From contig OZ240673.1 in assembly GCA_965198755.1 (NCBI GenBank), forward strand, positions 3,145,044 to 3,209,043: 64,000 bases of DNA. The letters run 5' to 3'. Below the pieces are notes generated by a model. That model saw nothing but the letters and a program-made list of their open reading frames with translations. It made no database searches and was not told the DNA's origin. The stretch's first letter is position 1, and each line of letters starts with the position of its first letter. The stretch comes from Acetobacteraceae bacterium (GTDB lineage: Bacteria; Pseudomonadota; Alphaproteobacteria; Acetobacterales; Acetobacteraceae). Below are positions 11,186 to 61,483 of the stretch, in pieces. The translations under genes were made by a program, and so were the position numbers.

Positions 11186-13438
11186 TTACGACCGCTTCCC
11201 CTCCACAATCTCCCGCGCCGCGTCCAACCGCGCGCTATACGCATCCAGCGCCGCCGCCGTCGCGTGCGCATATTTGTCAGCGTCCGCCCAGCGGCGTTCC
11301 TCGACCGCCTCGCGCACCGCCGGCAGCGTCTTCGCCGCGTAGCCGGTAAAGCGTCCCGGCGCGAAGATCAGGTTCTTGTACCAAGGCCGCCCAGGCAGGC
11401 CGGCCTCTGGCGCCAGCGTCTGGTCGATCGTCAGCATCGCCTGCTGCAGTTTCGCGAGGCGGTCCGGCGGCAGGCTGGCGCCATCATGGGCCAGCGCCGT
11501 GTCGTAGGCGTGCGCGCTCTGCTTCAGCTTGGTCACCGCGTCGTCGAGCACGGCGAGCTCCACCGCCGGCACCGGACCCAGCGCCTCGGGCGGCGCGCTC
11601 GTCCGCGTCGGGTCGGCGGCCAGCGTGTAGTCGTGCTCGCGCAGCAGGGAGGCCTGCGTCTCGGCGGTCTGCCGCGCGGTCTCGAGCTGCTTTTTCAGAT
11701 CCGTCAGGTAGCCCGCCACCGCATCGGCGAAGTCGCCGGCGCGCTGCTGCGGCAGGGCGGCGTCGGCGATGCGCAGCACCGCGCGGCCGACCGTCTTGGC
11801 CAGCAGCGCGTCGTAGACGAAGCTTGGGTCGACGAAGCGGCTGTGGTGTTCCCAGGTGTCGTAGGCGGAGTGGTAGACGCCGCCGGCCTCGCCCTCGCCG
11901 CCGTAGCCGAAGTTCAGCGCCGGCAGGCCGAGATGCTGCAGGAAGCTGGAGAAGTCCGACCCCGACCCGAGAGCTGCAACCGGGATGTCGCGGCCCGGGT
12001 CGGCGAGCTCGCGGGCGTCGGCCAGCTCGCGCGGTGTCGCACCCGGCTCGGTGGCGCCCACCCGGACGGCGGCGCGCAGGCGATGGGCCACCGAGACGTG
12101 GGTTTCCGGGTCGGTGACGTCGGCGGCCACCCCGCTTACGAAGTGGCGGAAATCCGGGCTGCCGCCGGCGTCGAGCAGGCCGCGGGCGTTCTCGTCGGAG
12201 TTGATGTAGATGACCGCGTGCTTCTTCAGGTCGTCGGCGTGGGTCTCGGCCCACTCGGTCGAGCCGATCAGGCCCGGCTCCTCGGCGTCCCAGCTGGCGT
12301 AGATGATGGTGCGCTTCGGCTTGTAGCCGGCGTGGACCAGACGGCCGATCGCCTGCGCCTCGGCCAGCAGGGCGGACTGGCCGCTCAGCGGGTCGCTGGC
12401 GCCGAACACCCAGCCGTCGTGGTGGTTGCCGCGCACCACCCATTGGTCCGGCAGCTCGGCGCCGCGCATGGTGGCGATCACGTCGTAGATCGTCTTCTGG
12501 CTCCAGTCGGACTTCACCGCCAGGTGCACCGGTGCCGGGCCGGGGCCCACGCGGTAGGTGATCGGCATGGTGCCGCGCCAGTCCGCCGGCACCGGCTGGC
12601 CGCCCATCGTCGCGAGCAGATGGATGGCGTCGGCGTACGAGATGGGCAGCGCCGGTATCTTCAGGATCACCGGCGCGTCTGCGCGGTCGATCCGGTGGGC
12701 CTCGGCGGTGGCACCCACGCCGGGGGTGAGCGGGTCGCCGGGGTAGAGCGGCATGTCGGCCACCGAGCCGCGCTGGATGCCCTGCGGCGGCCGCATCGGG
12801 CCGTTCGGGTAGACGCGGTCCATGCTGTAGCCGTCCTGCGCGGGGTCCGAGTAGATGATGCAGCCGATGGCGCCGTGGTCCTGTGCCAGCTTCGGCTTCA
12901 GGCCGCGCCAGCCGTGGCCGTAGCGGGTGATGACGATCTTGCCGCGCACGTCGACGCCCAGCCGCTCGAGCTGTTTGTAGTCGTCCTGCATGCCGAAGTT
13001 GACGTAGACGAGCGGGGCGGTGACGTCGCCGTCGCCCTGGTAGGCCAGGTAGGCGGGCAGCGCGTCTGCTGTGCGGGCGGAGGTGGCGTCGCCGGGGACG
13101 GCGCGTTCCTGCAAGGTGGCGCGGAACGGGGTAGGAGCGGTGGTCTCCAGCACCTCGGAAAGGGGCGTGGGGTAGAGCACCTGGAAAGTCTCAATGTGGG
13201 CGTCCCAACCCCATTGCTGGAACAAATGCAGCTCGAACTCGGCGTTCGCCTTGTCGTGCGCGGAGCCCACCTGGTTGGGCTCGCTGGCCATCTGCTTCAG
13301 CCAGCCGCCGATCTCGTCGGGTTTGATCTCCGCGTCGAAGCGCTGCTCTAGCGTGGCCTGGTCGGCCTGCGGCTGGGCGTGCAGCAGCACCGGGGCGGCG
13401 AGTGCGATGGTGGCGAGGAGGGCGGTTCGGCGGCGCAT
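11186..13438 (-). CDS. M28 peptidase, glutamate carboxypeptidase II-like (PA + transferrin-receptor dimerization domains), secreted
   Basis: Signal peptide, GNHHDGW, DPLSG, WDAEEPGLIGSTEW, GSGSDF, YHSAYD. Confidence 0.93.
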   Translation of the reverse strand: MRRRTALLATIALAAPVLLHAQPQADQATLEQRFDAEIKPDEIGGWLKQMASEPNQVGSAHDKANAEFELHLFQQWGWDAHIETFQVLYPTPLSEVLETTAPTPFRATLQERAVPGDATSARTADALPAYLAYQGDGDVTAPLVYVNFGMQDDYKQLERLGVDVRGKIVITRYGHGWRGLKPKLAQDHGAIGCIIYSDPAQDGYSMDRVYPNGPMRPPQGIQRGSVADMPLYPGDPLTPGVGATAEAHRIDRADAPVILKIPALPISYADAIHLLATMGGQPVPADWRGTMPITYRVGPGPAPVHLAVKSDWSQKTIYDVIATMRGAELPDQWVVRGNHHDGWVFGASDPLSGQSALLAEAQAIGRLVHAGYKPKRTIIYASWDAEEPGLIGSTEWAETHADDLKKHAVIYINSDENARGLLDAGGSPDFRHFVSGVAADVTDPETHVSVAHRLRAAVRVGATEPGATPRELADARELADPGRDIPVAALGSGSDFSSFLQHLGLPALNFGYGGEGEAGGVYHSAYDTWEHHSRFVDPSFVYDALLAKTVGRAVLRIADAALPQQRAGDFADAVAGYLTDLKKQLETARQTAETQASLLREHDYTLAADPTRTSAPPEALGPVPAVELAVLDDAVTKLKQSAHAYDTALAHDGASLPPDRLAKLQQAMLTIDQTLAPEAGLPGRPWYKNLIFAPGRFTGYAAKTLPAVREAVEERRWADADKYAHATAAALDAYSARLDAAREIVEGKRS

Positions 13439-13504
13439 GCGGCGTGGCTCCGGGGTGGCTGGGCGGAGCCAAGCAGGATTGCGGGGGGCGCGCTACCCGT
13501 TAGG

Positions 13505-13553
13505 GAAGCAAGCAAGGCCTTCTTTTTTGAAAAAAAGAAGCAAAAAACTTTTG
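13505..13553 (+). repeat. Palindromic element half copy E6 (GAAGC arm only)
   Basis: gaagcaagcaaggccttcttttttgaaaaaaagaagcaaaaaacttttg. Confidence 0.85.
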
Positions 13554-13567
13554 ATTTCTGGGCTTGG

Positions 13568-13596: not shown

Positions 13597-13614
13597 GGCG
13601 CCGCTCTGGCGGAT

Positions 13615-13689
13615 GGCGACGTAGCTCAGCGGTAGAGCAGGGGAATCATAATCCCTTGGTCGGGTGTTCAAGTCACCCCGTCGCTACCA
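13615..13689 (+). tRNA. tRNA-Met(CAT), elongator type
   Basis: Cloverleaf: acceptor GGCGACG/CGTCGCT, anticodon loop ATCATAA, T-arm GGGTG-TTCAAGT-CACCC, encoded CCA. Confidence 0.93.
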
Positions 13690-13709
13690 TCGGATTTTCG
13701 ACTGTTCTC

Positions 13710-13836
13710 AAGCAAGCAAGCGGTTCTTTTTTGAAAAGAGAACCAAAAACTTTGTTTCCTGGGTAGCCGCTGCCGGGGGTTGCGCGACAGCAGGGAAAGA
13801 GTTTTCGCCGCTATTTTCGGAAACGCATGCCTTGCC
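13710..13836 (-). repeat. Palindromic element E7 (right arm eroded)
   Basis: GAACC arm, CGCGACAG, degenerate right arm. Confidence 0.75.
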
Positions 13837-13947
13837 CTCTTCGCTAGGAACTGAGGAAATCGTATCCAGGTTACCTGGTGTCATCTCGCTCGCCGACCGG
13901 GACTGAACAGGCAACGCACAAGCCCTGCCAAGCCAAGGACGCCCACC

Positions 13948-14421
13948 ATGAGGATACTCGCCGCCGGACTGCTTCTCGCATGCCTCGCCGTCCACCCGCA
14001 GCAGGCCGCAGCCACCACCGGCCTCGTCGTGCAGGGCGACAACGCCGGCTTCAAATACGTCCCCGCCCCCGCCTCCCTGCCCAAGGGCACCCAGGTCAGC
14101 AACCTGCTCGGCGACCCCTCCCAGCCCGGCCCCTTCGTGCTACGGCTGATCTTCCCGCCGTACACCGACATTAAGCCGCACACCCACTCCAAGCCGGAAA
14201 CCGTTACAATCCTGTCCGGCTCGATCTACCACGGGCACGGCGCCACGCTGGTCCGCGCGAACGGCACCGAGCTGACCGCCGGCGGCTTCGTCTACCTGCC
14301 GCAAGGCATGCCCCACTCGCTCTGGACCACGGACCAGCAGGCCGTGATCCAGGTTTCCGGCACCGGCCCGTTCGGCCTGCAATACGTCAACCCAGCCGAC
14401 GATCCGAGCCGCGCGAAGTAG
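13948..14421 (+). CDS. Secreted cupin domain protein (DUF4437-like)
   Basis: Signal peptide; PHTHSKPE and GMPHS cupin His motifs. Confidence 0.85.
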   Translation: MRILAAGLLLACLAVHPQQAAATTGLVVQGDNAGFKYVPAPASLPKGTQVSNLLGDPSQPGPFVLRLIFPPYTDIKPHTHSKPETVTILSGSIYHGHGATLVRANGTELTAGGFVYLPQGMPHSLWTTDQQAVIQVSGTGPFGLQYVNPADDPSRAK

Positions 14422-14945: not shown

Positions 14946-16439
14946 ATGAACGACCTCGCCGGCGTCGCCCAGGCCTTTCAGGACAGCCTGCCCCGCGGTG
15001 CCGAGGTGATCGTCTCGCGCATCGACAGCCTGGACCGCATCGGCGTCCCCGTGGTCCAGGCCGTGCTGCTGGGCCCCGACAGCCCTGCGCTGTCCGGCTA
15101 CGGCTACGGCGTGACCGAGCTGGAGGCACGCGTCGGCGCACTCGGCGAGCTGTGCGAGGAAGCCCATGTCGGCGCCACCATCGCCGCCGCCCCGCAGACC
15201 CTCGCCAGCTATGCAGCCCTGGCCGCGCGCCTGGGCGAACACGCGGTGCTCGACCCGCTGACGCTGTGCCTGCCGGCCGGCTCGGCCTACACGCCCGACA
15301 TGCCGCTCTCCTGGGTCGCCGGCCAGCGCTGGCCGGACGCAGCACCGGTGATGGTGCCGGCCGAGTGGGTGGCGGCGCACCCCTACCAGCTCGCCGCGCC
15401 GGCGCGGCTGATCACGCCCATCACCAACGGCCTGGGCGCCGGCTTCGACCTGCCACACGCTTTGGCGCACGCCTTGATGGAGCTGCTGCAGCGCGACGGC
15501 AACAGCCTCACCTACCGCGCGCTGGACCAGGGCGTGGTGGTCGACCTGCCGCAAGGCGCGCTCGGCGACGTCGACGACCTGCTGGCTCGCCTGCACGCGC
15601 TCGGCATCCGCCCGGTCGTCAAGCTGGCCGACACCAGCTTCGGACTCTCCAACCTCTATGTCATGGGCGATGATGACGGCCCGGCCCACTTCACCCTGCA
15701 GCTCAGCGCCTGCGGCGAGGCGTCCCATCCGGACCGCGCCCGGGCCCTGCGCAAGGCGCTGCTGGAATACATCGGCTCGCGCTCCCGCAAAGCGGCGACG
15801 CACGGTCCGGTGGAGACGGCGCGGCGCGTGCTGCCGCCGGCCTACCTGGCCCGCCTGCTCGCCGTCCCGCCGGCCGCCGAAGAGCCGCGCGCGCTGCAGG
15901 CGATGGCCGAGTGGCTGGGGCTGGACGCGGCAGCCTTGCGCCAGCTGCTGGCCGGCCCGGTGCAGCGCCGCACGCGCGGCATCTCGTTTGCCGACCTGCC
16001 CGACGCACCGGCGGCCGACGTCGCCACCTCCTCCGCCCGGCTCGACTATCTGGCGACCCGGCTGGCGGAAGCCGGGCTCGGCATCGTCTGGGTGGATTGC
16101 TCGCCGGCAGACGGGCCGGTGCGCGTGGTGCGCGCCATCGTGCCGGGACTGGAGAGCGAAACCATGAGCTACCACCGCCTCGGCCGGCGCGGGGTCGCCA
16201 GGCTGCGCGCCCGCCGCGACCCGCTGCTGCTCGACGCACCTCGCGACGGCGCCCTGCGCGTGCGCCTGCGCCCCGAGGACGAGGCAGCCTGCGGCGGGCC
16301 AGCCTGGTTCGACGCGGCACTCGCAGCACGGCTGACCGATCCGCTCTACCCGCTGTATCGTGAATGCGGGCCGTTCGCCGCACAGCGGCTGCTGGCCGGA
16401 AGCCGGCTTCATCGGGCGGATGCTGAAGCTGCGTGCTAG
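14946..16439 (+). CDS. YcaO-like protein (paralogue 1)
   Basis: LDRIGVP, GYG..E..EE, PITNGLGAG, HALMELLQRD, HPDRARALRKALLE, IVPGLE. Confidence 0.85.
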   Translation: MNDLAGVAQAFQDSLPRGAEVIVSRIDSLDRIGVPVVQAVLLGPDSPALSGYGYGVTELEARVGALGELCEEAHVGATIAAAPQTLASYAALAARLGEHAVLDPLTLCLPAGSAYTPDMPLSWVAGQRWPDAAPVMVPAEWVAAHPYQLAAPARLITPITNGLGAGFDLPHALAHALMELLQRDGNSLTYRALDQGVVVDLPQGALGDVDDLLARLHALGIRPVVKLADTSFGLSNLYVMGDDDGPAHFTLQLSACGEASHPDRARALRKALLEYIGSRSRKAATHGPVETARRVLPPAYLARLLAVPPAAEEPRALQAMAEWLGLDAAALRQLLAGPVQRRTRGISFADLPDAPAADVATSSARLDYLATRLAEAGLGIVWVDCSPADGPVRVVRAIVPGLESETMSYHRLGRRGVARLRARRDPLLLDAPRDGALRVRLRPEDEAACGGPAWFDAALAARLTDPLYPLYRECGPFAAQRLLAGSRLHRADAEAAC

Positions 16440-16468
16440 GGGCGTTCGGCTTGCAGTGGCTTCGACCA

Positions 16469-16620
16469 GGCAAGGCAAGCAGTTCTTTTTTGAAAAAAAG
16501 AACCAAAAAACTTTTGTCTCTCTCGGGTGTGCCGTGGTGAGACGCCTTGTTTCAGCCGTCCGCGACAGCGCGCCCAAAAGCTTTTTGCTTCTTTTTCTCG
16601 AAAAAGAAGGCGCTTGCTTT
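16469..16620 (-). repeat. Palindromic element E8
   Basis: Full copy with TGTTTCAGCCGTCCGCGACAG spacer. Confidence 0.95.
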
Positions 16621-16678
16621 CTACTGAGGCGGCGGTCGCAATTGAGAGCGTCTTTCGACTTGCCCGCCCAGTGCACCC

Positions 16679-19831: not shown

Positions 19832-19845
19832 GCGCGGTCCGGCCG

Positions 19846-23281: not shown

Positions 23282-23393
23282 AACAAAAGAAACAATGCCA
23301 CGTTCACTCCAAAATCCGGCAATCCAGTCCGTCGACTTGCGAGTCATGCTGATGACCTCCGGGCCATCCGCCGGCTTCTCAAGTGACGCCCGT

Positions 23394-23498
23394 AAAGAAA
23401 GCTATTGGTGGCGCTATCGCGGAGTTTCCGGCAGCGCGCGCCCAAGAGAACAAAAGTTTTTTGGTTCTTTTTTTCAAAAAAGAACCGCTTGCTTCCTT
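23394..23498 (+). repeat. Palindromic element E11 (left arm eroded)
   Basis: CTATCGCGGAGTTTCC spacer + intact GAACC arm. Confidence 0.85.
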
Positions 23499-23509
23499 CG
23501 GGTCAGTTC

Positions 23510-25824: not shown

Positions 25825-25854
25825 GGTTCGCCCGGCGGCCCGTGTTGACGAGTA

Positions 25855-25992
25855 GCAAGCAAGGCAAGCAGTTCTTTTTTGAAAAAAAGAACCAAAAAAC
25901 TTTTGTTCCCTTGGGTGCGCGTTGCAGGAAACTCCGCGACAGCAGGGATAAAAGTTTTTTGCTGCTTTTTTTCAAAAAAGCAGGCCTTCCCT
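25855..25992 (-). repeat. Palindromic element E12
   Basis: Full copy; right arm has compensatory GCTGC/GCAG variant. Confidence 0.95.
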
Positions 25993-26137
25993 TTCTTCTA
26001 GAGCATCAACCAACCTTACGGGGCTGCCCGTCGGATGCAGATGCTCGTCAACGGAGGGCGCTGCCGCGTTTTCCGGTCTGCTTGTCCAATTCAACGAGGT
26101 CAGAAAACACTCTAGCGTGTCGGCTTGCCGCGGAGGC

Positions 26138-26962
26138 ATGGGCTTGAGGTTCGCCTACAACACCAACGGCACCGCCAACCACCGGCTGGACGAGGCGATC
26201 GCGCTGATCGCCGACGCCGGCTACGACGGCGTGGCGCTGACTCTCGACATCCACCACCTCGACCCGTTCGCGGGCTTTCGCGCCGAGCTGCGCCGCGTCG
26301 CCGCTCTTCTGCGCGCCCATAGCCTAGGCTGCGTCATCGAGACCGGCGCGCGCTTCCTGCTCGACCCGCGGCAAAAGCACGAGCCTACCCTGGTGACCGC
26401 GGACAGTGAGGGCCGCGCGCGCCGCGTGGCTTTCCTGACCCGCGCGCTGGAAGCGGCCGCTGAGACCGGCGCCGAGGCGATGTCTTTCTGGGCCGGCGTG
26501 CCGAAACCGGGCGTGACCGCGGCGCAGGCGCGCGATTGGGTGGCCGAGGGCGCGGCCGAAATTGCCCGGCGTGCCGAACAGCTCGGGACTGTCGCCGCGC
26601 TTGAGCCGGAACCGGGCATGGCGATCGAGACCGCGGCAGACTGGCAGGCGCTGGCGATCCCCGGCCTGCGCCTGGCGCTGGACACCGGGCACTGCCTGGT
26701 CACCGGCGAGATGGACCCCGCGGACGCGGTGCGCCAGTACGCAAGCGACCTCGGCACCGTGTCGATCGAGGACATGGCGCGCGGCGTGCACGTGCATTTG
26801 CCGTTCGGCGAGGGGGACATGGACCTGCCTGGCGTGCTCGCGGCGTTGCATGAGGTGCGCTTCACCGGCCTGGTCTGCGTGGAGCTGTCGCGGGAGAGCC
26901 ACCGGGCGGACACGATGGTGCCGGGTGCGTTGGCGTGGCTGCGGGATCGGGTGGCGTCCTGA
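26138..26962 (+). CDS. Sugar phosphate isomerase/epimerase (AP endonuclease 2 TIM barrel)
   Basis: GGAGG RBS; AYNTNG, LEPEPGM, LDTGH, IEDM, HLPFGEGD, VELSR. Confidence 0.9.
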   Translation: MGLRFAYNTNGTANHRLDEAIALIADAGYDGVALTLDIHHLDPFAGFRAELRRVAALLRAHSLGCVIETGARFLLDPRQKHEPTLVTADSEGRARRVAFLTRALEAAAETGAEAMSFWAGVPKPGVTAAQARDWVAEGAAEIARRAEQLGTVAALEPEPGMAIETAADWQALAIPGLRLALDTGHCLVTGEMDPADAVRQYASDLGTVSIEDMARGVHVHLPFGEGDMDLPGVLAALHEVRFTGLVCVELSRESHRADTMVPGALAWLRDRVAS

Positions 26963-26966
26963 TGCG

Positions 26967-27100
26967 AAGCAAGACCTTCTTTTCTGAAGAAAAGAAGCAA
27001 AAGACTTTTGCTTCCGCTGTCGCGGACTCTCCCACGAGCGCGCGGCAGCGGAAACAAAAGTTTTTTGGTTCTTTTTTTCAAAAAAGAACTGCTTGCCTGC
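26967..27100 (+). repeat. Palindromic element E13
   Basis: Full copy between the TIM-barrel and GT4 genes. Confidence 0.95.
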
Positions 27101-27104
27101 CTTC

Positions 27105-28322
27105 ATGAGGATCTGTTTCGTCAGCCGCCGCTACTTCCCGGCGATCTCCGGCATGAGCGTCTACGCGCAGAACCTGCTCCGCGAACTCGCCAGCGCCGGC
27201 CACGACGTAACGATGATCAGCCAATACCGCGGCGACGATTACGGCCGCGCCGTCTACGGCGGCGGCCCGCCCCCCGCGGTGCCCGGCGTGCGCGTCTTCG
27301 GCCTGGAGCAGCTCGGCGAGCAGTCGACCGGCGACTTCGAGCGTGACGTCGCCGTGATGGTGGAGGCGATCTGCGCCGAACACACGCGCGCGCCGTTCGA
27401 CGTGCTGCACGCGCAATACGGCTACCCGACCGGCTGGGCGGTCATGCTGGCGGCCCGGCGGCTGGGGCTGCCGAGCGTGGTCTCCATCCAGGGCGGCGAC
27501 GGGCACTGGGTGGGCTCGTGTTGCGAGACGCACCGCCTGGCGATGATACGCGTGCTGGACCACGCGGGCGCGGTGCTGATCGGCTGCCGCTCGTTTGCAG
27601 AGGAGGTGTGCGGGCGGCTGGGCACCGATCCTGGACGCTTCACCATCGTGCCGGGCGCGGTGGAGACCGACCGATTCACCCCGGCCGCCCGGCCGGTGGG
27701 CGCCGCGCCGGTGCTGCTGTATCACGGCCGGATCGACGCGCGGAAAGGTGCGCTGGACCTGCTGGACGCGGCCAGGCTGCTCGCCGACGAGGGCGCGGCC
27801 TTTTCACTGGTGTATTCGGGCATCGGCCCGGATCACGGGCGCGTCGCGGCGCGCATCACCGAACTGGGCCTGGGCGGGCGCGTGCGGATGACCGGCTACG
27901 TCAACTACGCGGACGTGCCGGCGGTGTATCACCAGGCGGACGTGTTCGTTTCGCCCACCTATGCCGAGGGGTTCTCCAACACCATCCTCGAAGCGATGGC
28001 ATCCGGCCTGGCCTGCGTCTCCTGCCGCGTCGTGGGCGTCATGGACTGCCTGCGGGACGGCGAGAACGGGCTGCTGAACGAGCCGGGCGACATACCCGCC
28101 TTGGCCGCCTCGCTGCGCCGGCTGCTGGCTGAGCCGGACCTGCGGCGCCGGCTGGCGCAGGCGGGGCTGGAGGAGTGCCGGCGCCTCTACTCGTGGCCGG
28201 CGGTCGGGCGGCAGATCATGCAGGTCTACGCCGACACGGTGCGGCGAGCGCCGGACCTGGGCTTCTCCACCGAGCTGCCGATGACGCCGTGCCGTTTCCG
28301 GGCGGACCCGCACCTCCTGTGA
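27105..28322 (+). CDS. GT4 family glycosyltransferase
   Basis: HAQYG, GRIDARKG, EGFSNTILEAMASG. Confidence 0.93.
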   Translation: MRICFVSRRYFPAISGMSVYAQNLLRELASAGHDVTMISQYRGDDYGRAVYGGGPPPAVPGVRVFGLEQLGEQSTGDFERDVAVMVEAICAEHTRAPFDVLHAQYGYPTGWAVMLAARRLGLPSVVSIQGGDGHWVGSCCETHRLAMIRVLDHAGAVLIGCRSFAEEVCGRLGTDPGRFTIVPGAVETDRFTPAARPVGAAPVLLYHGRIDARKGALDLLDAARLLADEGAAFSLVYSGIGPDHGRVAARITELGLGGRVRMTGYVNYADVPAVYHQADVFVSPTYAEGFSNTILEAMASGLACVSCRVVGVMDCLRDGENGLLNEPGDIPALAASLRRLLAEPDLRRRLAQAGLEECRRLYSWPAVGRQIMQVYADTVRRAPDLGFSTELPMTPCRFRADPHLL

Positions 28323-33960: not shown

Positions 33961-34058
33961 CCCTGTCGCGGTCGCATTAAGCAACACGCTTCAACAACGC
34001 GCACCAACGAGAGCACAGGTTTTTTGGTTCTTTTTCTTCAAAAAAGAACCGTTTGCCT
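33961..34058 (+). repeat. Palindromic element E18 (left arm lost)
   Basis: CTGTCGCG at 33963; GAACC arm abuts the stop of the TPR gene. Confidence 0.8.
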
Positions 34059-35438
34059 TCACGCCCGCTGCCGCAGCGCCACGCTCACCTGCTCCAGCAC
34101 CGGCGCCCACTCCGTCGGCTTAGACTGCCGGAACAGGCGCAGGCTCGGATACCAAGGGTTGTCCGCACGATCGAGCAGCCAGCGCCAATCGGCGGGCTCC
34201 GGCACCAGCACCCAGGCCTCTCGGCCGAGTGCTCCGGCCAGGTGCACGACAGCGGTGTCCACCGCGATGACGAGGTCCAGGTTTTCCATGGCAGCGCCGG
34301 TCTCCGCAAAATCGGTGAGTTCCTGCGAGAGGTCGGTGAAGTGCGGCTGGGAGGCGGCGAACGCGCGGTCCTCGTCCGGGAATGGCTTCTGCAGGCCGAA
34401 GAAGTCCACCCCTGGCACCGCGAGGATCGGTGCGAGCGTCGACATACGGGTGGAGCGGCGCAAGTTGTTGGGGTGCGTCGGGCGGCCGGACCAGGCCAGG
34501 CCCACGCGCAGGCGGCGTTGCGGCTGGAGCTGCTCCAGGCGTTGCCGCCAATGGACCACGCGGTTGGGGTTGACGGTGACGTAGGGAATGGACGCCGGGA
34601 TGCTGGAGAGCTCGGTGCCGAAGATCTGCGGCAGGCTGGAGAGCAGCACGTAGGCGTCGTGCGGCGGGGCGTCGGCCCAGCGGTCAAAACAGAGATCGAC
34701 GTCCGGGTGGTGGCCGAGCAGGGCGGTCACCTCCGGGCCCCAGCCGATGGCGAGTTTAGGCACACGCTGTTTCACCCAGGGGATGTATCGGGCGAACTGG
34801 ATCATGTCGCCGAAGCCCTGGTCGGCCACCAGCACCAGCGTGCCGCCCGGCAGGTGCATGCCGTTCCACTGCGCCGCGGTCATCTTGGGCAGGGTGCCGC
34901 GCGCCTGGTCCAGCTTGTTGCGCCAGGCGTATTCCAGCCAGCCGGGCTGGTATTCGCCGGTGGACAGGAGCAGCTCGCCCAATCCCATGTGGGCCGGCGC
35001 ACTTTCCGGCTCGCGCGCCATTGCCTCGCGGTAGCGCAGCGAGGCGAGGTCGCGTTCGCCGCGGGTCAGGTGGGTCAGTGCCAGCTCCACCCGGTGGGCG
35101 GCGGTGTCCGGGCTGGTGCGCACCGCTTCCAGGCCGGAGGCGAGCGCCTCGTCGAGCATGTTCTTGCCGCGGTAGAGGGCGCACAGGTTGAGGTGCCAGT
35201 TGCCGACGTTGGGCTGCTTGGCGAGCGCGGATTTCAGGTGCTCGATCGCCTCATCGGCACGACCTTCCTGGCCAAGGATGCCGCCGAGCAGGCCCAGCGC
35301 GCCGGGCAGGTCGGGCTGGGCGGCCAACAGGTCGCGGCAGATGCCGATGGCCTCGTTGATTCGGCGCAGCTTGGCGGCCTGGAGTGCGCGGGTCAGCGCC
35401 TGGTCGGGCGTCTCCTTCTGCGCCGTACTGTCTGACAT
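34059..35438 (-). CDS. TPR-repeat protein with C-terminal GT9-like glycosyltransferase domain
   Basis: N-terminal TPR helices; DQGFGDMIQFARY, VGLAWSG, LDLVIAVDTAVVHLAGALG. Confidence 0.88.
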   Translation of the reverse strand: MSDSTAQKETPDQALTRALQAAKLRRINEAIGICRDLLAAQPDLPGALGLLGGILGQEGRADEAIEHLKSALAKQPNVGNWHLNLCALYRGKNMLDEALASGLEAVRTSPDTAAHRVELALTHLTRGERDLASLRYREAMAREPESAPAHMGLGELLLSTGEYQPGWLEYAWRNKLDQARGTLPKMTAAQWNGMHLPGGTLVLVADQGFGDMIQFARYIPWVKQRVPKLAIGWGPEVTALLGHHPDVDLCFDRWADAPPHDAYVLLSSLPQIFGTELSSIPASIPYVTVNPNRVVHWRQRLEQLQPQRRLRVGLAWSGRPTHPNNLRRSTRMSTLAPILAVPGVDFFGLQKPFPDEDRAFAASQPHFTDLSQELTDFAETGAAMENLDLVIAVDTAVVHLAGALGREAWVLVPEPADWRWLLDRADNPWYPSLRLFRQSKPTEWAPVLEQVSVALRQRA

Positions 35439-39862: not shown

Positions 39863-39870
39863 GATCGGTG

Positions 39871-44050: not shown

Positions 44051-44149
44051 GTTGAACGAAGTGCTTTAACGCGGCACACAACGAATCCTGATTCTGTATT
44101 GAACGCCAAGTAGATTGTATGAACCATCGGCGATTGTGACTCGTGGCAG

Positions 44150-44308
44150 AAAGCAAGCAGTCCGTTTTTGAACAGAAGGACCAAAAAACTTTTGTTCCTC
44201 CGCGCTTGCAGCAGTCGAGTATCCCCGGGCAAAAGCGCGTGCTGAAAATGCGAAGAGAAGCAAAAGTTTTTTGCTTCTTTTTTTCAAAAAAGAAGGCCTT
44301 GCTTGCTT
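44150..44308 (-). repeat. Palindromic element E21
   Basis: Left arm GTCC/GGAC variant, right GAAGC-type arm. Confidence 0.85.
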
Positions 44309-44325
44309 CTACTACTCGGCTTGTA

Positions 44326-45324: not shown

Positions 45325-45842
45325 CCCGGAGCCTTCGCCCCTGCCGTCCGGTCGAAATACACGCCGAGGGCCAGCGCAATCTGATTAGCCAGCGCCTCGG
45401 CCTGACGCCGCTGCGTCTCTTCCTGCTCCAGGGTTGCGTAGAAGAACTGCTCGTCGAGGATGTTGTAGCCGTCCAGGCTACGGGCGGTTCCGCTCGCCAG
45501 TGTCGCGGCGGGATTGTCCACCAGGTGCAGCGACCAGGTAGCGGTGCTGATGTCCCGGTTGCGAGTGGTTGAGTTGTCGGCCTGCACGTTCAAGCCCTGC
45601 ACGCTTTCTGCGAAGCCCACGCTCAGGCTGTACCGCTTCGGCGTATCGGCCGACGATCCCTCCAAGCGAGCCTGCAGCGCCTGCCGCAACAATTGGCCCG
45701 GCCGGTTTGGAATCAGGCCGACATAGACTTCCGCCAGCCTTGCCTGGCCGGCGCCGGCGCTGACAGTCCCGTAGACCGGGTGGAAACCGCAGGCGGACGT
45801 CGCTGCAGCACAACCGATCACCAAGACGCGCCGGGTTATCAT
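45321..45842 (-). CDS. lptE: LPS assembly lipoprotein
   Basis: Lipobox [10 protein letters not shown]; position between leuS and holA. Confidence 0.88.
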
Positions 45843-48433: not shown

Positions 48434-48454
48434 CGACGGAGACCTACCAGAAGG

Positions 48455-48493
48455 GAGCGCTGCTTTTTTGAAAAAAAGCAAAAAACGTTTGCT
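48455..48493 (+). repeat. Palindromic element half copy E22 (eroded)
   Basis: agcgctgcttttttgaaaaaaagcaaaaaacgtttg. Confidence 0.7.
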
Positions 48494-49357: not shown

Positions 49358-49460
49358 CCGAACCAAAAACTTTAGTCCCCTTGCGCATCCGCCGGCTGAA
49401 CGGTCCGCGACAGCCGAAACAAAAGTTTTTTGCTTCTTTTTTTCAAAAAAGAAACGCTTC
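49358..49460 (-). repeat. Palindromic element E23 (left arm eroded)
   Basis: CGCGACAG + right arm, which supplies the stop of the thiamine-phosphate-synthase-like gene. Confidence 0.85.
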
Positions 49461-50027
49461 GACACCTCCCACGCCAACCAGCACTGCCCCAGGCAACCGC
49501 CTCACATTCCGCCCGCTGACACCCCCCAGCGCCAGCACCGCCCCCTCCTGCCCGCGCACCATGCCTGCCCAGCGCAGCGGCCCCAGAGACCGCGCTCCAG
49601 GATGGCTCACTGTCGGGAACACCGGCGAGAGAAACACCAGCGCCCCGGCGGCCAGCCCCGCGCGCAACTCACGCGCGCCGTGCGCGGATGCGGTGGTCAG
49701 CCGGCCAGGAAGCGGGCGCACCCGGCCAGGCCGGCCGCCTCTCAGGTGCTGCCCGGCGGCAACCGAAGCGGCCAGACGCGGGTCACCTGCCACCGTGAGC
49801 GCGATCCGCCGCGCCCGGCACAGCGCTGCCACCCGCCGGGCCAGTGCTGCGCGTCCCTCTACCCCGTCATGGCGGAACACCACGCCGCACAGCCCCGGCG
49901 GCAAGCGTGCGATGGCCGGCAACGGGTCCGGCAGCCGTGCAGCGTCGGTGAACAGCCACAGCACCGGCGTGGTGAGCCGCCTGCGCGCCTTGACCGCACG
50001 CGCCCACGCAACCAGCCTAACATCCAT
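49443..50027 (-). CDS. Thiamine phosphate synthase (TMP-TENI) family protein
   Basis: LWLFTD, VVFRH, TASAH, LSPVFPTVSH, LALGGV. Confidence 0.8.
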   Translation of the reverse strand: MDVRLVAWARAVKARRRLTTPVLWLFTDAARLPDPLPAIARLPPGLCGVVFRHDGVEGRAALARRVAALCRARRIALTVAGDPRLAASVAAGQHLRGGRPGRVRPLPGRLTTASAHGARELRAGLAAGALVFLSPVFPTVSHPGARSLGPLRWAGMVRGQEGAVLALGGVSGRNVRRLPGAVLVGVGGVEAFLF

Positions 50028-53499: not shown

Positions 53500-53518
53500 C
53501 CGGCACGCCGATTTAGCA

Positions 53519-53663
53519 GAAGCAAGGCCTTCTTCTTCGAAAGAAAGAAGCAATAGGCTTTTGTGCGCGCTGTCGCGGACAGCTGAAACGACACGCCTCC
53601 GCACAGCACAGGCGACGGAGACAAGACTTTGTGGTTCTTTTTTCAAGAAGAACCGCTTGCTTG
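53519..53663 (+). repeat. Palindromic element E25
   Basis: Full copy, GCTGAAACGACACG spacer. Confidence 0.9.
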
Positions 53664-53700
53664 TCTGAGGTCCGGCAAAACCTGCAAACACCCGCTCTCA

Positions 53701-58354: not shown

Positions 58355-58383
58355 CGGGGTATGCCGAAAGTCCGAGGCAAGTT

Positions 58384-58879: not shown

Positions 58880-60313
58880 ATGGCCGCGCCTGACATGCCC
58901 GACACCTCGCCCGCCTCACCAGCGCCCCAGCACAACGTCGCCAGCCAGACGCTGACCAAGCGCGCCCGCAGCCGCCTCTCCGCCACCTGGGAACGCCCAG
59001 CCCGCAAGATCCTCCCGCGCAGCCTGCTCGGCCGCTCGCTGCTGATCATCCTGATCCCGCTCCTCGCCGTGCAGGCGATCGCGCTGCTCATCTTCTACGG
59101 CAGCCACCTGAACCTCATCTCCCGCCGCCTGTCCGGCGCCGTCGCGGGCGAGATCGCCCAGACCATCCGCCTGCTGGCCTCCACCGACGATGCCGGCGAC
59201 CAGGCCTGGATCCTGCGCACCAGCCTGCGCGACTTCGACCTGCGCATGCACGTCCGCCCCGGCGCTCACCTGGTCCCCCACACCCACGTCAACATCCTCG
59301 GCCCGATGGACGACGACCTGGCCGTGGCCCTGAAGGAACGCGTGGTGCTCCCCTTCGCCATGGACTGGACGCACGACCCCAGCTCCGTGCTGATCGACGT
59401 GCAGCTCCCCCCCACCATCATGCACGGTGGCGTGCTGCACGTGGAGGCGCCGCGCAAGCGCCTCTACACCAGCATGATCTACGTCTACGTGCTGTGGCTC
59501 GGCGGCTCCTCCATCCTGCTGTTCAGCATCGCCGCGCTGTTCATGCGCAACCAGGTGCGCGCCATCCGCCGCCTGGCCGCCGCCGCCGAGAATTTCGGCC
59601 TCGGCCGCGACACCGGCGCCATCCGCCCGGAAGGAGCCACCGAAGTCCGCAAGGCCGCTACCGCCTTCAACCGCATGCAGGAACGCATCCGCCGCTTCCT
59701 CACCCAGCGCACCGAAATGCTGGCCGGCGTCAGCCACGACCTGCGCACCCCGCTCACCCGCCTGCGCCTGGCACTGGCCATGCTGCCGGCCGAAGGCGAG
59801 CTGGCCGCCGAAGCCGCCGAGATGACCGCCGACGTGGAGGAGATGGAGCGGATGATCAGCGGCTACCTCGCCTTTGCCCGCGGCGAGCAGGCCGAACAGG
59901 CCCAGCCGGTGAACCTGCCCCTGATGCTGGAGGACGTCGCCGCCAATGCCCGCCGCGCCGGCGCCGAAGTGGGCGTGGACGTGCCCGAACCGCTCATTGT
60001 GCAGCTGCGCCAGGACGCCATGCGCCGCGCGCTCACCAACCTGGTCGACAACGCCCGCCGCTACGCTGGGCGCATCAGCCTCTCTGCGCTGGCCGTCGGC
60101 CGGTCCGTGCTGGTGATGGTGGACGACAACGGGCCGGGCATTCCGCTGGATCGGCGGGAGAGCGTGTTCCGGCCGTTCGAGAGCGGGGCTGCCGGTGGGA
60201 CGGGGCTTGGGCTCACCATCGCGCGGGACATCGTGCGCGCGCATGGGGGGGATATTACGCTGGAGGACAGTCCGCTCGGGGGGCTTAGGGCGAGGGTGCG
60301 GTTGCCGGTTTAG
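58880..60313 (+). CDS. EnvZ-like sensor histidine kinase (2 TM, HAMP, HisKA, HATPase)
   Basis: GVSHDLRTPL, NLVDNA, DDNGPG, GTGLGL. Confidence 0.95.
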   Translation: MAAPDMPDTSPASPAPQHNVASQTLTKRARSRLSATWERPARKILPRSLLGRSLLIILIPLLAVQAIALLIFYGSHLNLISRRLSGAVAGEIAQTIRLLASTDDAGDQAWILRTSLRDFDLRMHVRPGAHLVPHTHVNILGPMDDDLAVALKERVVLPFAMDWTHDPSSVLIDVQLPPTIMHGGVLHVEAPRKRLYTSMIYVYVLWLGGSSILLFSIAALFMRNQVRAIRRLAAAAENFGLGRDTGAIRPEGATEVRKAATAFNRMQERIRRFLTQRTEMLAGVSHDLRTPLTRLRLALAMLPAEGELAAEAAEMTADVEEMERMISGYLAFARGEQAEQAQPVNLPLMLEDVAANARRAGAEVGVDVPEPLIVQLRQDAMRRALTNLVDNARRYAGRISLSALAVGRSVLVMVDDNGPGIPLDRRESVFRPFESGAAGGTGLGLTIARDIVRAHGGDITLEDSPLGGLRARVRLPV

Positions 60314-60469
60314 AAGGCAAGCAAGGCCTTCTTTTTCGAGAGAAAGAAGCAAAAAGCTTTTATTACGGCTGTCGCGGACAACTGAACGACGAGTCTCAAC
60401 CCGGCACACCCCACGGAGACAAAAGTTTTTTGGTTCTTTTTTTCAAAAAAGAACTGCTTGCTTGCTTCC
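60314..60469 (+). repeat. Palindromic element E32
   Basis: Full copy; abuts the kinase TAG. Confidence 0.95.
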
Positions 60470-60523
60470 CTCCGCGCGCCCGTGGCGCTTTAACACGTTG
60501 AGCAACTTACCATATCGGTCAGC

Positions 60524-61483
60524 ATGGCCGCAGACCCGTACACCACGCTGGGCGTCAAGCGCGACGCGACCGCAGCACAGCTCAAATCCGCCTACCTCAA
60601 GCTCGCCAAGAAGCACCACCCGGACCTCAACCCCGGTGACAAGAAGGCCGAGGAGCGCTTCAAGTCGATCAGCGCCGCGCACGACCTGCTGAGCGACGCG
60701 GAGAAGCGTGCCCGCTTCGACTCCGGCGAGATCGACGCCACGGGCCAGCCGCAAGGTCCGCGCGGCGGCGGCGAACGCAGCTTCTACCGCGGGTTCGCCG
60801 ACGGCGAGCAGGGTGCCCGCTACCAGGCCGGCCCCGGTTTCGGCGGCAATTTCGGCGGCGGCCAGGAAGGCCTGCACGACATCTTTGCCGACCTGTTCGC
60901 CAACGCACGCCGCGGCGGCGGCCAGACAAGGGACGACCCGATGCGCGGCCAGGACCAGCGCTACCAGCTCAGCGTCTCGTTCGTTGAGGCAGCCCTCGGC
61001 GCCAGCCGCCGCCTCACCCTGCCGGATGGCCGCACGCTGGACGTGACCGTGCCGCCCGGGCTGGAGGATGGCCAGACCCTGCGCCTGCGTGGCCAGGGCT
61101 CGGCCGGCTGGAACGGAGGCCAGCCCGGCGACGCGATGATCGAGGTCAGCGTTCTCGCCCACCCGTTCTTCCGACGCGAGGGGACGGACATCCACCTCGA
61201 CCTGCCGATCACCGCCGCCGAAGCCGCCCTCGGCGCCAAGGTGGCGGTGCCCACGCCGGCCGGCCCGGTGCAGATGAGCATCCCGCGCCACTCCGATGCC
61301 GGCCGCCAGCTGCGCCTGCGCGGGCGGGGCATCGCGGCGCACGGCGGCAAGCCGGCGGGCGACCTGTACGTCACGCTGAAGCTGGTTCTCGGCACGCCGG
61401 ACCAGGCGCTGGAAGACGCGCTGGCCGCCTTCTACGAACGCCACCCGATCGACCCACGCGCCCACATGAGCGAGGCCGCATGA
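60524..61483 (+). CDS. cbpA: DnaJ-class chaperone without Zn finger (CbpA-like)
   Basis: J domain HPD, G/F-rich linker, LRLRGQG, GDLYV. Confidence 0.88.
   Translation: MAADPYTTLGVKRDATAAQLKSAYLKLAKKHHPDLNPGDKKAEERFKSISAAHDLLSDAEKRARFDSGEIDATGQPQGPRGGGERSFYRGFADGEQGARYQAGPGFGGNFGGGQEGLHDIFADLFANARRGGGQTRDDPMRGQDQRYQLSVSFVEAALGASRRLTLPDGRTLDVTVPPGLEDGQTLRLRGQGSAGWNGGQPGDAMIEVSVLAHPFFRREGTDIHLDLPITAAEAALGAKVAVPTPAGPVQMSIPRHSDAGRQLRLRGRGIAAHGGKPAGDLYVTLKLVLGTPDQALEDALAAFYERHPIDPRAHMSEAA

Follow-up and report, generated by a model that had tools for sequence, protein, structure and literature searches.

Each copy of a short palindromic repeat in this Acetobacteraceae DNA appears to be the centre of a local, ongoing process of strand-asymmetric mutation, and the cause is most likely repeated single-strandedness of the 3'-ending strand (a reading given a probability of roughly 55%). 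On the top strand, the flanks are G-rich to the left of the elements and C-rich to the right. This flip was proposed in a first-pass annotation from eight hand counts in the window (the whole 64-kb stretch of DNA that was analysed). All eight were reproduced exactly: around E10 (21541-21586, G24/C9; 21741-21810, G17/C33), around E32 (60241-60300, G30/C11; 60541-60600, G14/C25), right of E5 (11191-11250, G11/C30), left of E6 (13381-13440, G31/C15) and at two balanced gene ends without an element (19741-19800, G21/C22; 20821-20880, G19/C21). The effect is far stronger than the hand sample indicated.

The repeat family and the skew of its flanks

The repeats are very high-copy, ~150-nt, near-palindromic, non-coding, mobile, MITE-like elements of the family Acetobacteraceae. 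An nhmmer model of the end module finds 33 copies or half-copies in the window (Table 1). Element boundaries are throughout placed at column 1 of this model, which lies a few nt beyond the conserved AAGCAAGG terminal repeat. At both ends, a terminal repeat rich in G and A, (A/G)AGCAAGGCAAG, is accompanied by a 22-nt A/T hairpin; the centre is imperfect and variable. No insertion-site sequence motif was found at the elements, and no autonomous partner of the ~150-nt element was identified in the present analysis.

Table 1. Copies of the repeat in the window, with top-strand G/C counts in the 100 nt on each side
Position	Copy	Left flank	Right flank	Remarks
4023..4176	Full, E1	G39/C23	G24/C45	
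6541..6692	Full	G51/C29	G27/C37	
8656..8808	Full	G39/C23	G31/C35	
10220..10371	Full	G33/C28	G23/C46	
11021..11187	Full, E5	G32/C28	G23/C46	
13499..13555	Left-end half, E6	G51/C25		Outer flank counted
13703..13757	Left-end half	G31/C27		Directly after tRNA gene
16462..16630	Full	G41/C28	G35/C33	
18368..18522	Full	G37/C29	G35/C33	
21578..21744	Full, E10			In frame inside methyltransferase-like gene 20898-22214
23449..23505	Right-end half		G21/C44	Outer flank counted
25851..26003	Full	G38/C35	G29/C31	Weak case
26956..27109	Full	G46/C27	G27/C39	Between AP-endonuclease-family and GT4 genes; orthologous site empty in L197, L199 and L062
29102..29421	Long (320 nt) or double	G42/C19	G31/C39	
29919..30085	Full	G27/C30	G19/C42	
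33551..33607	Left-end half	G42/C21		
33750..33899	Full (degenerate)	G22/C29	G26/C31	No clean flank; neighbours are other copies
34012..34069	Right-end half		G30/C40	
43978..44034	Left-end half	G28/C22		After parB
44140..44315	Full		G23/C40	Faces holA 3' end
48440..48493	Left-end half, degenerate	G34/C31		Upstream of leuS
49418..49474	Right-end half		G19/C55	
52760..52912	Full	G39/C24	G27/C35	After kup
53509..53673	Full, degenerate right end	G32/C36	G21/C32	
54912..55065	Full	G29/C24	G27/C35	
56019..56075	Right-end half		G21/C44	
56845..56900	Left-end half	G44/C26		
57506..57659	Full	G47/C28	G22/C45	Between MarR-family and response-regulator genes; junction empty in L191, L193 and L194
58379..58435	Left-end half	G36/C32		
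58648..58800	Full	G25/C35	G30/C36	Exception: left side of opposite sign
60308..60474	Full, E32	G45/C25	G28/C36	Between EnvZ-like kinase and DnaJ/CbpA-like genes
61781..62045	Long (265 nt)	G37/C23	G27/C39	
62828..62884	Right-end half		G24/C41	

Across all copies in the window, the first 60 nt of the left flanks contain G510/C308 (skew +0.25; +0.10 and +0.09 in the next 60-nt bins), and those of the right flanks G258/C394 (-0.21; -0.19 and -0.15 further out). G exceeds C at 21 of 22 left ends and C exceeds G at 16 of 17 right ends, with one tie per side. The flip index, defined as (skewL-skewR)/2 over 100-nt flanks, has a mean of 0.155 for the 21 full elements. At random positions it is 0.000 +/- 0.021, with a maximum of 0.086 in 5000 draws (elements, z=7.4).

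The signal persists beyond the window in 110 independent loci from about 40 other Acetobacteraceae assemblies, where G exceeds C in 120 of 142 left flanks and C exceeds G in 87 of 109 right flanks. In 160 full elements the left-side profile reads +0.20, +0.21, +0.18, +0.10, +0.07, +0.05, +0.04 and +0.03, falling to about 0 past ~200-240 nt, and the right side is its mirror image. The majority-base consensus of the flanks of other copies, taken from assembled contigs of the source samples, is likewise rich in G ahead of the element and in C after it. The skew is stronger at better-preserved elements (rho 0.25, p=0.002).

Silent sites, orthologous sites and recent substitutions

The skew is concentrated at silent positions. 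In the window, coding-strand third-position skew is +0.28 at 3' gene ends with an element and +0.03 at those without, and -0.33 versus -0.07 at 5' ends; element-free gene ends are thus not skewed to a similar degree. Third-position skew in the independent loci is +0.223 at 3' ends that face an element (n=170), as compared with -0.020 and -0.011 at those without (p=2.6e-10 and 4.5e-13, respectively), and -0.206 versus -0.12 at 5' ends (p~0.005). Codon position 2 shows no shift near elements in these loci. S is similar for all gene orientations: 0.164 (++), 0.185 (+-), 0.153 (-+) and 0.151 (--).

At four-fold sites, the strand running into the element has G.561, C.280 and T.101 (controls: G.44-.46, C.42, T.065-.077). 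Among its NNY codons, the share ending in T is.328 versus.23-.24 in controls, and among its NNR codons the share ending in A is.184 versus.235-.257. The strand running away from the element has the exact mirror of this signature. The four-fold shift is mainly from C to G (C -0.14, G +0.11, T +0.03) and GC3 changes only from about 0.835 to 0.807, so that plain C-to-T decay is not an adequate description. Because simple deamination would lower GC3, a restoring force must be assumed.

Orthologous sites with and without an element allow the same positions to be compared. E10 is read through as a 53-aa insert, and the third-position G/C counts of the 20 codons on its left are 12/3 (window gene), 11/1 and 10/5 in genes with the insert versus 5/8, 5/5 and 8/9 in those without. 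For the 20 codons on its right the counts are 2/15 (window gene), 4/13 and 4/14 versus 6/8, 6/10 and 10/7. At the 3' end of holA (G23/C4 at third positions of the last 40 codons, coding strand, in the window), the skew is +0.70 with the element and +0.05 pooled over 44 element-free orthologs. At operon junctions, 3' ends have +0.287 with an element versus +0.045 without; in the kinase region, 3' ends have +0.291 versus -0.066 and 5' ends -0.314 versus -0.126. By these comparisons, element-free relatives mostly lack the skew at the corresponding positions, the codons around E10 among them. Exceptions also occur where an element is present: in L192, two ends facing one are unskewed or skewed the other way (9/25, 16/18).

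Substitutions were polarised in an alignment of one trio of relatives (window, L195 and L196). At third positions within 120 nt of elements, 31 of 336 C sites on the into-element strand have undergone C>T and 34 of 717 G sites G>A, a ratio of 1.95; beyond 250 nt the ratio is 1.08. By our own estimates from these 31 versus 34 events, p is about 0.006 for the asymmetry near elements and about 0.02 for near versus far. In the same trio, neither C>G versus G>C (11 versus 18 events) nor A>G versus T>C (6 versus 12 events) differs significantly. The insertions compared are old, being common to three lineages about 10% diverged, and the asymmetry of recent substitutions has been kept without decay, which suggests that the process is ongoing.

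The first-pass annotation attributed the flip to strand-asymmetric mutation centred on the palindromes, and this proposal is supported by the silent-site focus, mirror symmetry, independence of gene orientation, lack of skew at element-free ends and gaps, scarcity of skew at empty orthologous sites and approximately two-fold per-site C>T rate on the predicted strand near elements. The specific chain that it put forward, from cruciform cleavage through resection to C-to-T deamination, stays hypothetical: plain deamination would fit the recent C>T excess on the predicted strand, but not the mostly C-to-G shift at four-fold sites.

Proposed mechanism and alternatives

The proposed mechanism is as follows. 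The strand running 5' to 3' into the element (top on the left, bottom on the right) would lose C and gain G and T over about 100-150 nt per side, giving the top strand its excess of G on the left and of C on the right. We infer that this 3'-ending strand repeatedly becomes single-stranded beside the element and that damage to it, such as cytosine deamination, would be fixed upon resynthesis of the partner strand. The inferred trigger may be 5'-to-3' resection that starts from a break or nick made at the element, the cutter possibly being a hairpin nuclease such as SbcCD or the element's own transposase acting at the element ends. Alternatively, a DNA polymerase may stall at the hairpin, with the template left gapped on its 5' side. 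Lost C would then end up mostly as G-ending codons under a restoring force by which third positions stay G/C-rich. The geometry appears to match bidirectional 5'-to-3' resection or a hairpin-stalled polymerase. Resection is not unique in this respect, as the same strand is also exposed by at least three other triggers (transposase nicking at the ends, a hairpin-stalled polymerase and nick-directed repair). Usual resection tracts and Okazaki-size gaps are longer than the ~100-nt range of the skew, which counts against the mechanism.

Selection is an unlikely explanation, and one weakened by the data. It would keep the flanks C-rich and G-poor on the outward RNA as Rho-utilisation-like tracts of about 80-100 nt, silencing spurious or antisense transcripts that start in the A/T-rich element; in a more general form, the flanks would avoid or favour nucleic-acid structure beside the hairpins. 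The ~100-nt scale and the excess of C over G on the outward-reading strand of both sides resemble the length scale and composition of rut sites, intact elements show the stronger effect, and an exchange of C for G with GC3 kept is natural for selection on composition. Such selection would, however, have to operate at thousands of loci and on dozens of silent positions. Sigma-70-like promoters are not enriched in or at the elements, and the complementarity between left and right flanks does not exceed that of cross-pairs. Selection for G should also lower G>A on the into-element strand, yet both transitions are elevated near elements (C>T 2.5-fold, G>A 1.4-fold), and two-fold codons shift as a strand-specific mutation bias predicts, NNY towards T and NNR away from A on one side and the reverse on the other. 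The same rise in G>A bears on a repair bias, which is less probable again: a boundary nick or recombination heteroduplex would make one strand always the template for mismatch repair or gene conversion, with changes fixed on the into-element strand. This bias predicts the symmetry and strand found, and the ~100-200 nt range fits the short patches of excision repair or nick translation, so composition alone cannot separate it from single-strand damage; it predicts, however, that G>A on the into-element strand is suppressed relative to background.

The remaining alternatives place the origin of the skew in the site or the gene. A target-site preference, by which the transposase picks a pre-existing switch from G-rich to C-rich and the skew is a relic, is improbable and has likewise been weakened. 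A symmetric transposase complex could favour a reverse-complement-symmetric target, and intact, possibly younger copies are more skewed. One element-free ortholog, in locus L193, has a TPR-gene 3' end as skewed as that of the window (G25/C7; window, 28/7), and three operon genes have C-rich 5' ends (-0.22) even in relatives that lack the elements. Preference cannot, however, move the average of nearly all sites, and an element is present at the majority of boundary 3' ends in the window (24, versus 9 facing an element-free gap of at least 60 nt). The 3' ends average +0.335 with an element, about 0 without one in the same genomes and about -0.07 in element-free relatives. Empty orthologous sites are mostly without skew, recent substitutions at old insertions are still asymmetric, and a motif-less compositional target of 100-150 nt would be hard to recognise. 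Slightly more doubtful is a link to transcription, in which the element would work as a terminator hairpin and the non-template strand of gene 3' ends would be exposed through polymerase pausing or R-loops there. Flanks that are gene 3' ends are indeed somewhat more skewed (0.18-0.23) than 5'-end flanks (0.12-0.16), the terminal hairpins, with CTTGCTT behind them, give weak scores as terminator-like sites, and at 3' ends it is the coding strand that is exposed, as predicted. The sign at 5'-end flanks, however, can only arise if the damage falls on the template strand, divergent gene pairs still have S=0.153 (n=8), and the E10 flip lies within one transcription unit. An ordinary codon gradient along genes or at operon boundaries, with elements merely intergenic, is scarcely credible. 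A weak baseline exists (5' third-position skew about -0.12; S 0.01-0.06 at element-free gaps), but at boundaries without an element in the same genomes (gaps of at least 60 nt) the 3' skew is -0.020 (n=152) and 5' ends are at baseline only. These boundaries, the orientation-independent S and the E10 flip, which is intragenic and missing from the same codons of insert-free orthologs, effectively refute the gradient, against which the first-pass annotation had already cited the flip inside one gene.

Comparison with known systems

Bacterial MITEs, such as the Correia elements of Neisseria and IS5-family-derived elements, are ~150 nt long with terminal inverted repeats and very high copy numbers. 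They are intergenic, abut stop codons and occasionally lie in frame within genes. The elements described here are like them in size, terminal repeats, copy number and placement, and unrelated in sequence. REP/BIME sequences mobilised by RAYT transposases are likewise high-copy extragenic palindromes of Proteobacteria, 20-40 nt in length with a GTAG or CGTC head (PMC3733652). Unlike REPs, the present elements are ~150 nt long and have A/T hairpins and GCAAG-type terminal repeats. The mirror-image footprint in the flanks of a repeat has apparently not been described before, and no report of flank skew at bacterial MITEs was found in the literature searched.

Enrichment of G and T is the leading-strand type of replication asymmetry. 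In replication-associated skew the leading strand has G>C and T>A, conventionally ascribed to asymmetric single-strand exposure; the signature is the same as at the elements, with G and T enriched on one strand, most strongly at silent sites (PMC3269012). Replication skew is chromosome-scale with two switches, at origin and terminus, whereas each element has one "terminus-like" switch decaying in about 200 nt. The trigger proposed in the first-pass annotation corresponds to SbcCD-cut palindromes, which form hairpins in replication and are cut and repaired by recombination; the abstracts consulted mention no compositional footprint (PMC4245961, PMC3315005). In the first of these papers, the E. 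coli chromosomal palindromes cut by SbcCD are engineered constructs of 460-480 bp (PMC4245961), far longer than the ~150-nt elements with their imperfect, variable centre, which likewise counts against the mechanism.

The closest geometry is that of resection clusters and kataegis-type hypermutation of single-stranded DNA (PMC6786661, PMC3521656). Bidirectional 5'-to-3' resection in yeast yields clusters with a single switch, mutated C on the left and mutated G on the right (PMC6786661). In these systems, as at the elements, the top strand is affected at C on the left and G on the right; the switch lies at the break site, the 3'-ending single strand is damaged, and the outcomes are both C>T and C>G. 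Such clusters each arise in one event, in experimental or somatic genomes, and extend over kilobases; an added deaminase is often the driver. The element footprint, unlike these clusters, is a near-equilibrium composition of silent sites formed over evolution; it has a width of about 100-150 nt, is centred on natural bacterial repeats in thousands of copies and is read from sequence alone.

Skew and silent-site composition beside the element

The first-pass annotation had claimed, from a small hand-picked sample, that the G/C skew of the top strand flips at copies of a near-palindromic repeat element, with G-rich sequence to the left and C-rich sequence to the right. All eight of its hand counts are exact. 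When every element end in the window is counted, the flip is pervasive, and the small sample therefore understated the pattern. The 60 nt outside left ends contain G510/C308 (skew +0.25) and the 60 nt outside right ends contain G258/C394 (-0.21). Of the 22 left ends, 21 have the expected sign, as do 16 of the 17 right ends; the remaining one on each side is a tie. AT skew is opposite to GC skew, with T in excess of A on the left and A equal to or in excess of T on the right. The flip index (half the difference between left and right skew over 100-nt flanks) averages 0.155 over 21 full copies; at random positions it is 0.000 +/- 0.021, and none of 5000 draws exceeds 0.086. Once the flanks are masked, no window-wide skew trend is seen.

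A scan for the element end motif over one genome per species recovered 110 loci (752 kb), nearly all from Acetobacteraceae: Acidocella, Acidiphilium sp. PA, Roseomonas sp. GC11 and many bog, lichen and lake MAGs. The second and third of these appear to be cultured carriers. In these independent loci, G exceeds C in 120/142 left flanks and C exceeds G in 87/109 right flanks. The skew profile is mirror-symmetric; it is maximal in the first 60 nt (~0.2), falls to half by ~70-80 nt and is gone by ~250 nt. Sequence within 250 nt of an element copy makes up 30% of the window. Skew is stronger beside better-preserved elements (rho 0.25, p=0.002; 0.075 in the lowest quartile versus 0.16-0.18). This correlation fits a process that requires an intact element, and also decay with age.

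The flanks were also considered as an unrecognized extension of the element or as remnants of GCAAG repeats. This idea is rejected, as the flanks show neither positional conservation nor A enrichment at positions -1 to -40, are coding sequence of unrelated genes and carry an effect specific to third positions. No sequence motif is found outside the terminal repeat, only a uniform G excess (G fraction ~0.38-0.40 across positions -1 to -40).

Genes were called by a codon-likelihood caller trained on the window rather than by a standard predictor; the raw-flank results are independent of these calls. In the window, coding-strand third-position skew is +0.28 at 3' gene ends that have an element no more than 150 nt away (n=29) versus +0.03 at those without (n=22), and -0.33 (n=15) versus -0.07 (n=36) at 5' ends. 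The skew is thus near absent at gene ends lacking an element, the comparison that the first-pass annotation had named as able to overturn its claim. In the independent loci, 3' ends facing an element have a third-position GC skew of +0.223 (n=170) and an AT skew of -0.33. Element-free 3' ends average -0.020 at gaps of at least 60 nt (n=152; p=2.6e-10) and -0.011 at gaps below 60 nt (n=208; p=4.5e-13). For 5' ends facing an element the GC skew is -0.206 versus -0.12 (p ~0.005), with an AT skew of +0.17. Codon position 1 is slightly shifted and position 2 is not. The flip index is 0.15-0.19 in all orientations of the neighboring genes, versus 0.01-0.06 at element-free intergenic gaps.

At silent sites, the signature is a strand-specific bias, G+T-rich on the strand whose 3' end meets the element. 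This strand, which runs 5' to 3' into the element (top on the left flank, bottom on the right), is the one that codes in genes with their 3' end toward the element; genes with their 5' end toward it are the exact mirror. Four-fold sites on this strand change by -.14 in C, +.11 in G and +.03 in T. Because GC3 is nearly kept (.807 near elements versus ~.835), most of the lost C returns as G.

Base use at silent sites on the strand running 5' to 3' into the element, with the mirror values of genes whose 5' end faces it
Measure	Facing element	Controls	Genes with 5' end facing element
Four-fold sites, G	.561	.44-.46	.350
Four-fold sites, C	.280	.42	.531
Four-fold sites, T	.101	.065-.077	
NNY codons, T share	.328	.23-.24	.135
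NNR codons, A share	.184	.235-.257	.331

Structure, distribution and insertion sites of the element

The window contains 33 element copies, full and half copies together, and 315 element records were collected across the window and the comparison loci L001-L194. The median full copy is 155 nt long, and the copies contain no ORF of their own. From the outside inward, each end consists of a G/A-rich terminal repeat (A/G)AGCAAGGCAAG, a 22-nt A/T hairpin TTCTTTTTTGAAAAAAAGAA and the motif CAAAAAACTTTTG. A variable G+C-rich core follows, beyond which the three outer parts are mirrored, such that left and right ends are reverse complements over ~50 nt (terminal inverted repeats). In the source runs, elements exceed their flanks in word depth by a factor of 100-500. 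In the source samples, the majority-base consensus of the flanks of other copies is G-rich before the element and C-rich behind it.

By structure, the element is classified as a putative MITE: it is short, non-coding and present in very many copies, with terminal inverted repeats. No Rfam family matches it, and outward promoters are not enriched in it. RAYT-mobilized REP/BIME sequences were considered and rejected. In the definition excerpted from PMC3733652, REPs are 20-40-nt palindromes with a GTAG or CGTC head, whereas this element is ~150 nt long with (A/G)AGCAAGGCAAG ends and an A/T hairpin. TA, TAA or TAG often adjoin the element ends, and many copies directly abut TAA, TAG or TGA stops. 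A possible affiliation with the IS5/IS1031 group (3-bp TNA target) is suggested by one site; a crude family-wide test finds no consistent target-site duplication.

The one clean comparison of a filled and an empty site lies in a conserved operon (Table below). The empty site in element-free relatives is ...CATGAGGATCTG, where stop and start overlap (ATGA). The filled site in the window reads CCTGA, element, ...CTTCA, TGAGGATCTG, giving a 3-bp TGA duplication. Together with the terminal A of the element, this duplication re-creates a separate stop and ATG start from the ATGA overlap. At the neighboring YcaO/AP-endonuclease-family junction, the 11-nt sequence TGAGGTTCGCC stands on both sides of a ~300-nt insert made up of an element and ~150 nt of other sequence. 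It occurs once in L197, as an ATGA overlap, and the duplication is longer than at the first junction. Among the first 110 loci, one presence/absence pair is clean and one has a 38-nt gap.

Positions of the features discussed
Locus	Position	Feature
Window	1761-2144	15-nt-period direct repeats, nine in-register copies of a 54-nt unit, GCxxCAGC-type
Window	13499-13555	Left-end half copy
Window	13615-13686	tRNA gene (Rfam RF00005, 66 bits), flanked on each side by a left-end half copy
Window	13703-13757	Left-end half copy, same direction
Window	14946-16439	Second YcaO gene
Window	18674-29071	Cluster conserved with L195-L199: myo-inositol-1-phosphate synthase, hypothetical, methyltransferase, GFO/IDH/MocA oxidoreductase, 274-aa protein, YcaO-family, AP-endonuclease-2/xylose-isomerase-like, GT4 glycosyltransferase, PIG-L deacetylase
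Window	20898-22214	Class I SAM-methyltransferase-like gene
Window	21578-21744	E10, the element copy inside this gene
L195	10001-11296	Ortholog with in-frame E10 insert
L196	10001-11326	Ortholog with in-frame E10 insert
Window	25822-26148	YcaO/AP-endonuclease-family junction with ~300-nt insert
Window	26956-27109	Filled site with TGA duplication
L197	~8040-8050	Corresponding empty site
L199	~13940-13950	Corresponding empty site
Window	38744-48433	mnmE/mnmG, parA-parB and holA-lptE-leuS region
Window	42331-43985	parA-parB, convergent with holA-lptE-leuS
Window	44326-48433	holA-lptE-leuS
L192	9137-11323	Response-regulator and kinase genes facing element copies
L042	3185-3222	Hairpin part of the element

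Element load is sharply unequal among related lineages. The window and the comparison loci L191, L192 and L194-L196 have one copy per 1-2 kb; L193 (21.3 kb) and L197-L199 have zero copies over 14-21 kb, with 75-88% protein identity to the window genes. Three loci titled as Eubacteriales MAGs (L042, and by title L031 and L052) have an exact match to the 34-nt end motif. The L042 locus has 40% G+C and contains the hairpin part, AAAAGCTTTTTGGTTCTTTTTCTCGAAAAAGAAC, only, with the rest of the element absent. Such matches could reflect mis-binning, a terminator-like hairpin reached by convergence, or the end of a related transposon.

The conserved cluster combines inositol synthase, GT4 and PIG-L genes, a set reminiscent of inositol-glycoside or thiol-cofactor pathways; a YcaO partner in such a cluster is unusual. 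The gene order mnmE/mnmG-parAB-holA-lptE-leuS is common to 18-29 element-free leuS loci. In Alphaproteobacteria, the mnmE/mnmG-parAB-holA-leuS neighborhood is usually near the replication origin; no clear skew minimum is visible in the window.

Orthologous sites with and without the element

E10 is in frame and open, and adds 53 aa (ending ...FFQKRTACLAS) between conserved motifs of the methyltransferase-like protein. The insert (44-54 aa) is also in frame in L195 and L196, ~10% diverged, and is absent from more distant orthologs, including those of the wholly element-free loci L197-L199. As it is in frame in three lineages, it is a tolerated or exapted MITE-encoded protein segment. In the 20 codons left of the site, third-position G/C counts are 12/3, 11/1 and 10/5 in the carriers (window, L195 and L196) versus 5/8, 5/5 and 8/9 in L197, L198 and L199. 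In the 20 codons to the right they are 2/15, 4/13 and 4/14 versus 6/8, 6/10 and 10/7.

The operon junctions give a similar comparison. Genes that overlap (ATGA) in element-free relatives are separated in the window and two close relatives by elements at three junctions, and a further element follows PIG-L. Third-position skew at the operon ends facing elements is +0.287 (3') and -0.428 (5'), versus +0.045 and -0.221 at the same ends in element-free relatives; control ends are without such contrast. Since -0.221 is already present without an element, the 5' operon effect is only partly element-specific. In the window, holA has third-position G23/C4 over its last 40 codons, and 44 pooled element-free orthologs give +0.05. 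The leuS 5' end gives -0.35 versus -0.10, and none of 80 leuS loci from metagenomes has the element. For the kinase region, with four relatives pooled, the values are +0.291 versus -0.066 at 3' ends and -0.314 versus -0.126 at 5' ends.

There are exceptions. The 3' end of a TPR gene is equally G-rich (25/7) in L193, which is confirmed to be repeat-free. In L192, the 3' ends of a response-regulator gene (G9/C25) and a kinase gene (G16/C18) both face element copies, without the G excess typical of such ends. The regulator 5' end is G3/C30, its nearest upstream copy being degenerate and ~250 nt away.

Origin of the asymmetry

Recent changes were polarized by majority in an alignment of the window with L195 and L196 (18.4 kb, ~90% identity), using third positions oriented by the strand that runs into the element. 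In the zone up to 120 nt from an element, C>T occurs at 31/336 branch-sites (0.092) and G>A at 34/717 (0.047), a ratio of 1.95; beyond 250 nt the rates are 0.036 and 0.034 (ratio 1.08). By normal-approximation estimates of our own, p is ~0.006 for the near ratio and ~0.02 for near versus far. The ratio of C>G to G>C is 1.30 near elements (11 versus 18 events) and 0.80 far from them, the same lean with few events; in the same alignment A>G versus T>C shows no asymmetry. Given this recent asymmetry, the skew is unlikely to be merely a decaying relic. The component of the signature with the best support is cytosine loss on the predicted strand. Strand-asymmetric mutation centered on the palindromes, the interpretation first offered for the flip, thus gains support from the E10 orthologs, the element-free gene ends and the recent C>T changes.

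Several other explanations bear on the same data. A codon gradient along genes, against which the flip inside one gene had been cited, is rejected by the element-free ends, the four orientation contexts and the E10 orthologs. Against a choice of already skewed sites by the elements stands an argument from averages: of the 33 window 3' ends bordered either by an element or by an element-free gap (at least 60 nt), 24 have an element. Those 24 ends average +0.335 versus ~-0.07 for boundary 3' ends in element-free relatives, and mere site choice cannot shift the mean of nearly all sites. Exposure of the non-template strand by transcription agrees with a somewhat larger skew in 3'-end flanks (0.18-0.23) than in 5'-end flanks (0.12-0.16), and transcription may contribute a little at 3' ends. 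As the explanation it fails, however: where a 5' end faces an element, the coding strand is rich in C+A instead of G+T, and the effect is equal at divergent gene pairs.

The length scale of the flanks agrees with selection for outward transcripts that are C-rich and G-poor (Rho-type), but elements have no promoter enrichment, and such selection predicts a lowered G>A rate where the observed rate is raised. Selection on the flanks to pair and lengthen the stem is rejected; in-register complementarity is 0.402 versus 0.399 for cross-pairs, and duplex energy is -23.9 versus -23.8.

The proposed model for a mutational origin is as follows. A process with 5' to 3' polarity starting from the element would in every case expose one pair of strands, the top strand left of the element and the bottom strand right of it. 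The trigger could be a two-ended break followed by resection, as the first-pass annotation suggested. Alternatively, transposase nicks at the 3' ends of the element, as expected from general DDE transposase chemistry, could leave the 5' ends of the flanks open to exonuclease. A polymerase blocked at a template hairpin might also leave the template single-stranded on the 5' side of the hairpin. The broader reading is that thousands of repeat copies act as chronic, site-specific sources of DNA ends or gaps in wild chromosomes, each with a kataegis-like equilibrium footprint, and so reshape codon usage at silent sites across much of the genome. We hold this reading tentatively, at a probability of about 0.4.

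If it is true, the footprint would show, from natural sequence, with which polarity and over what length DNA ends are processed in never-cultured organisms. A mutational footprint would imply that small palindromic repeats are fragile or replication-blocking in nature, beyond engineered E. coli and yeast constructs, and would add to replication and transcription a third source of strand asymmetry, one that acts on a fine scale. The cost and mutational side-effects of thousands of MITEs would become measurable from sequence alone, and in vivo hairpin or cruciform formation and processing would become testable at natural sequences. Codon usage, dN/dS, GC-skew origin prediction and gene-finding could be biased in repeat-rich genomes. 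The model makes explicit predictions of strand, range (~100-150 nt) and candidate genes (sbcCD, recJ, addAB, ung and the cognate transposase).

A full-text literature search, which was not exhaustive, found no published report of compositional skew flanking MITE or REP elements. Replication leading-strand skew resembles the element flanks in that G>C and T>A occur together on one strand at silent sites. It switches only at the origin and terminus, whereas the 64-kb window has one switch per element, at ~30 elements. In yeast resection clusters, the mutated top-strand base is C to the left and G to the right (PMC6786661); the element flanks share this geometry, with C affected 5' and G affected 3' of a switch at the site. 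Replication skew and break-associated, strand-coordinated mutagenesis of single-stranded DNA are the nearest known phenomena, of which the flip would be a fine-scale, repeat-anchored variant acting over evolutionary time.
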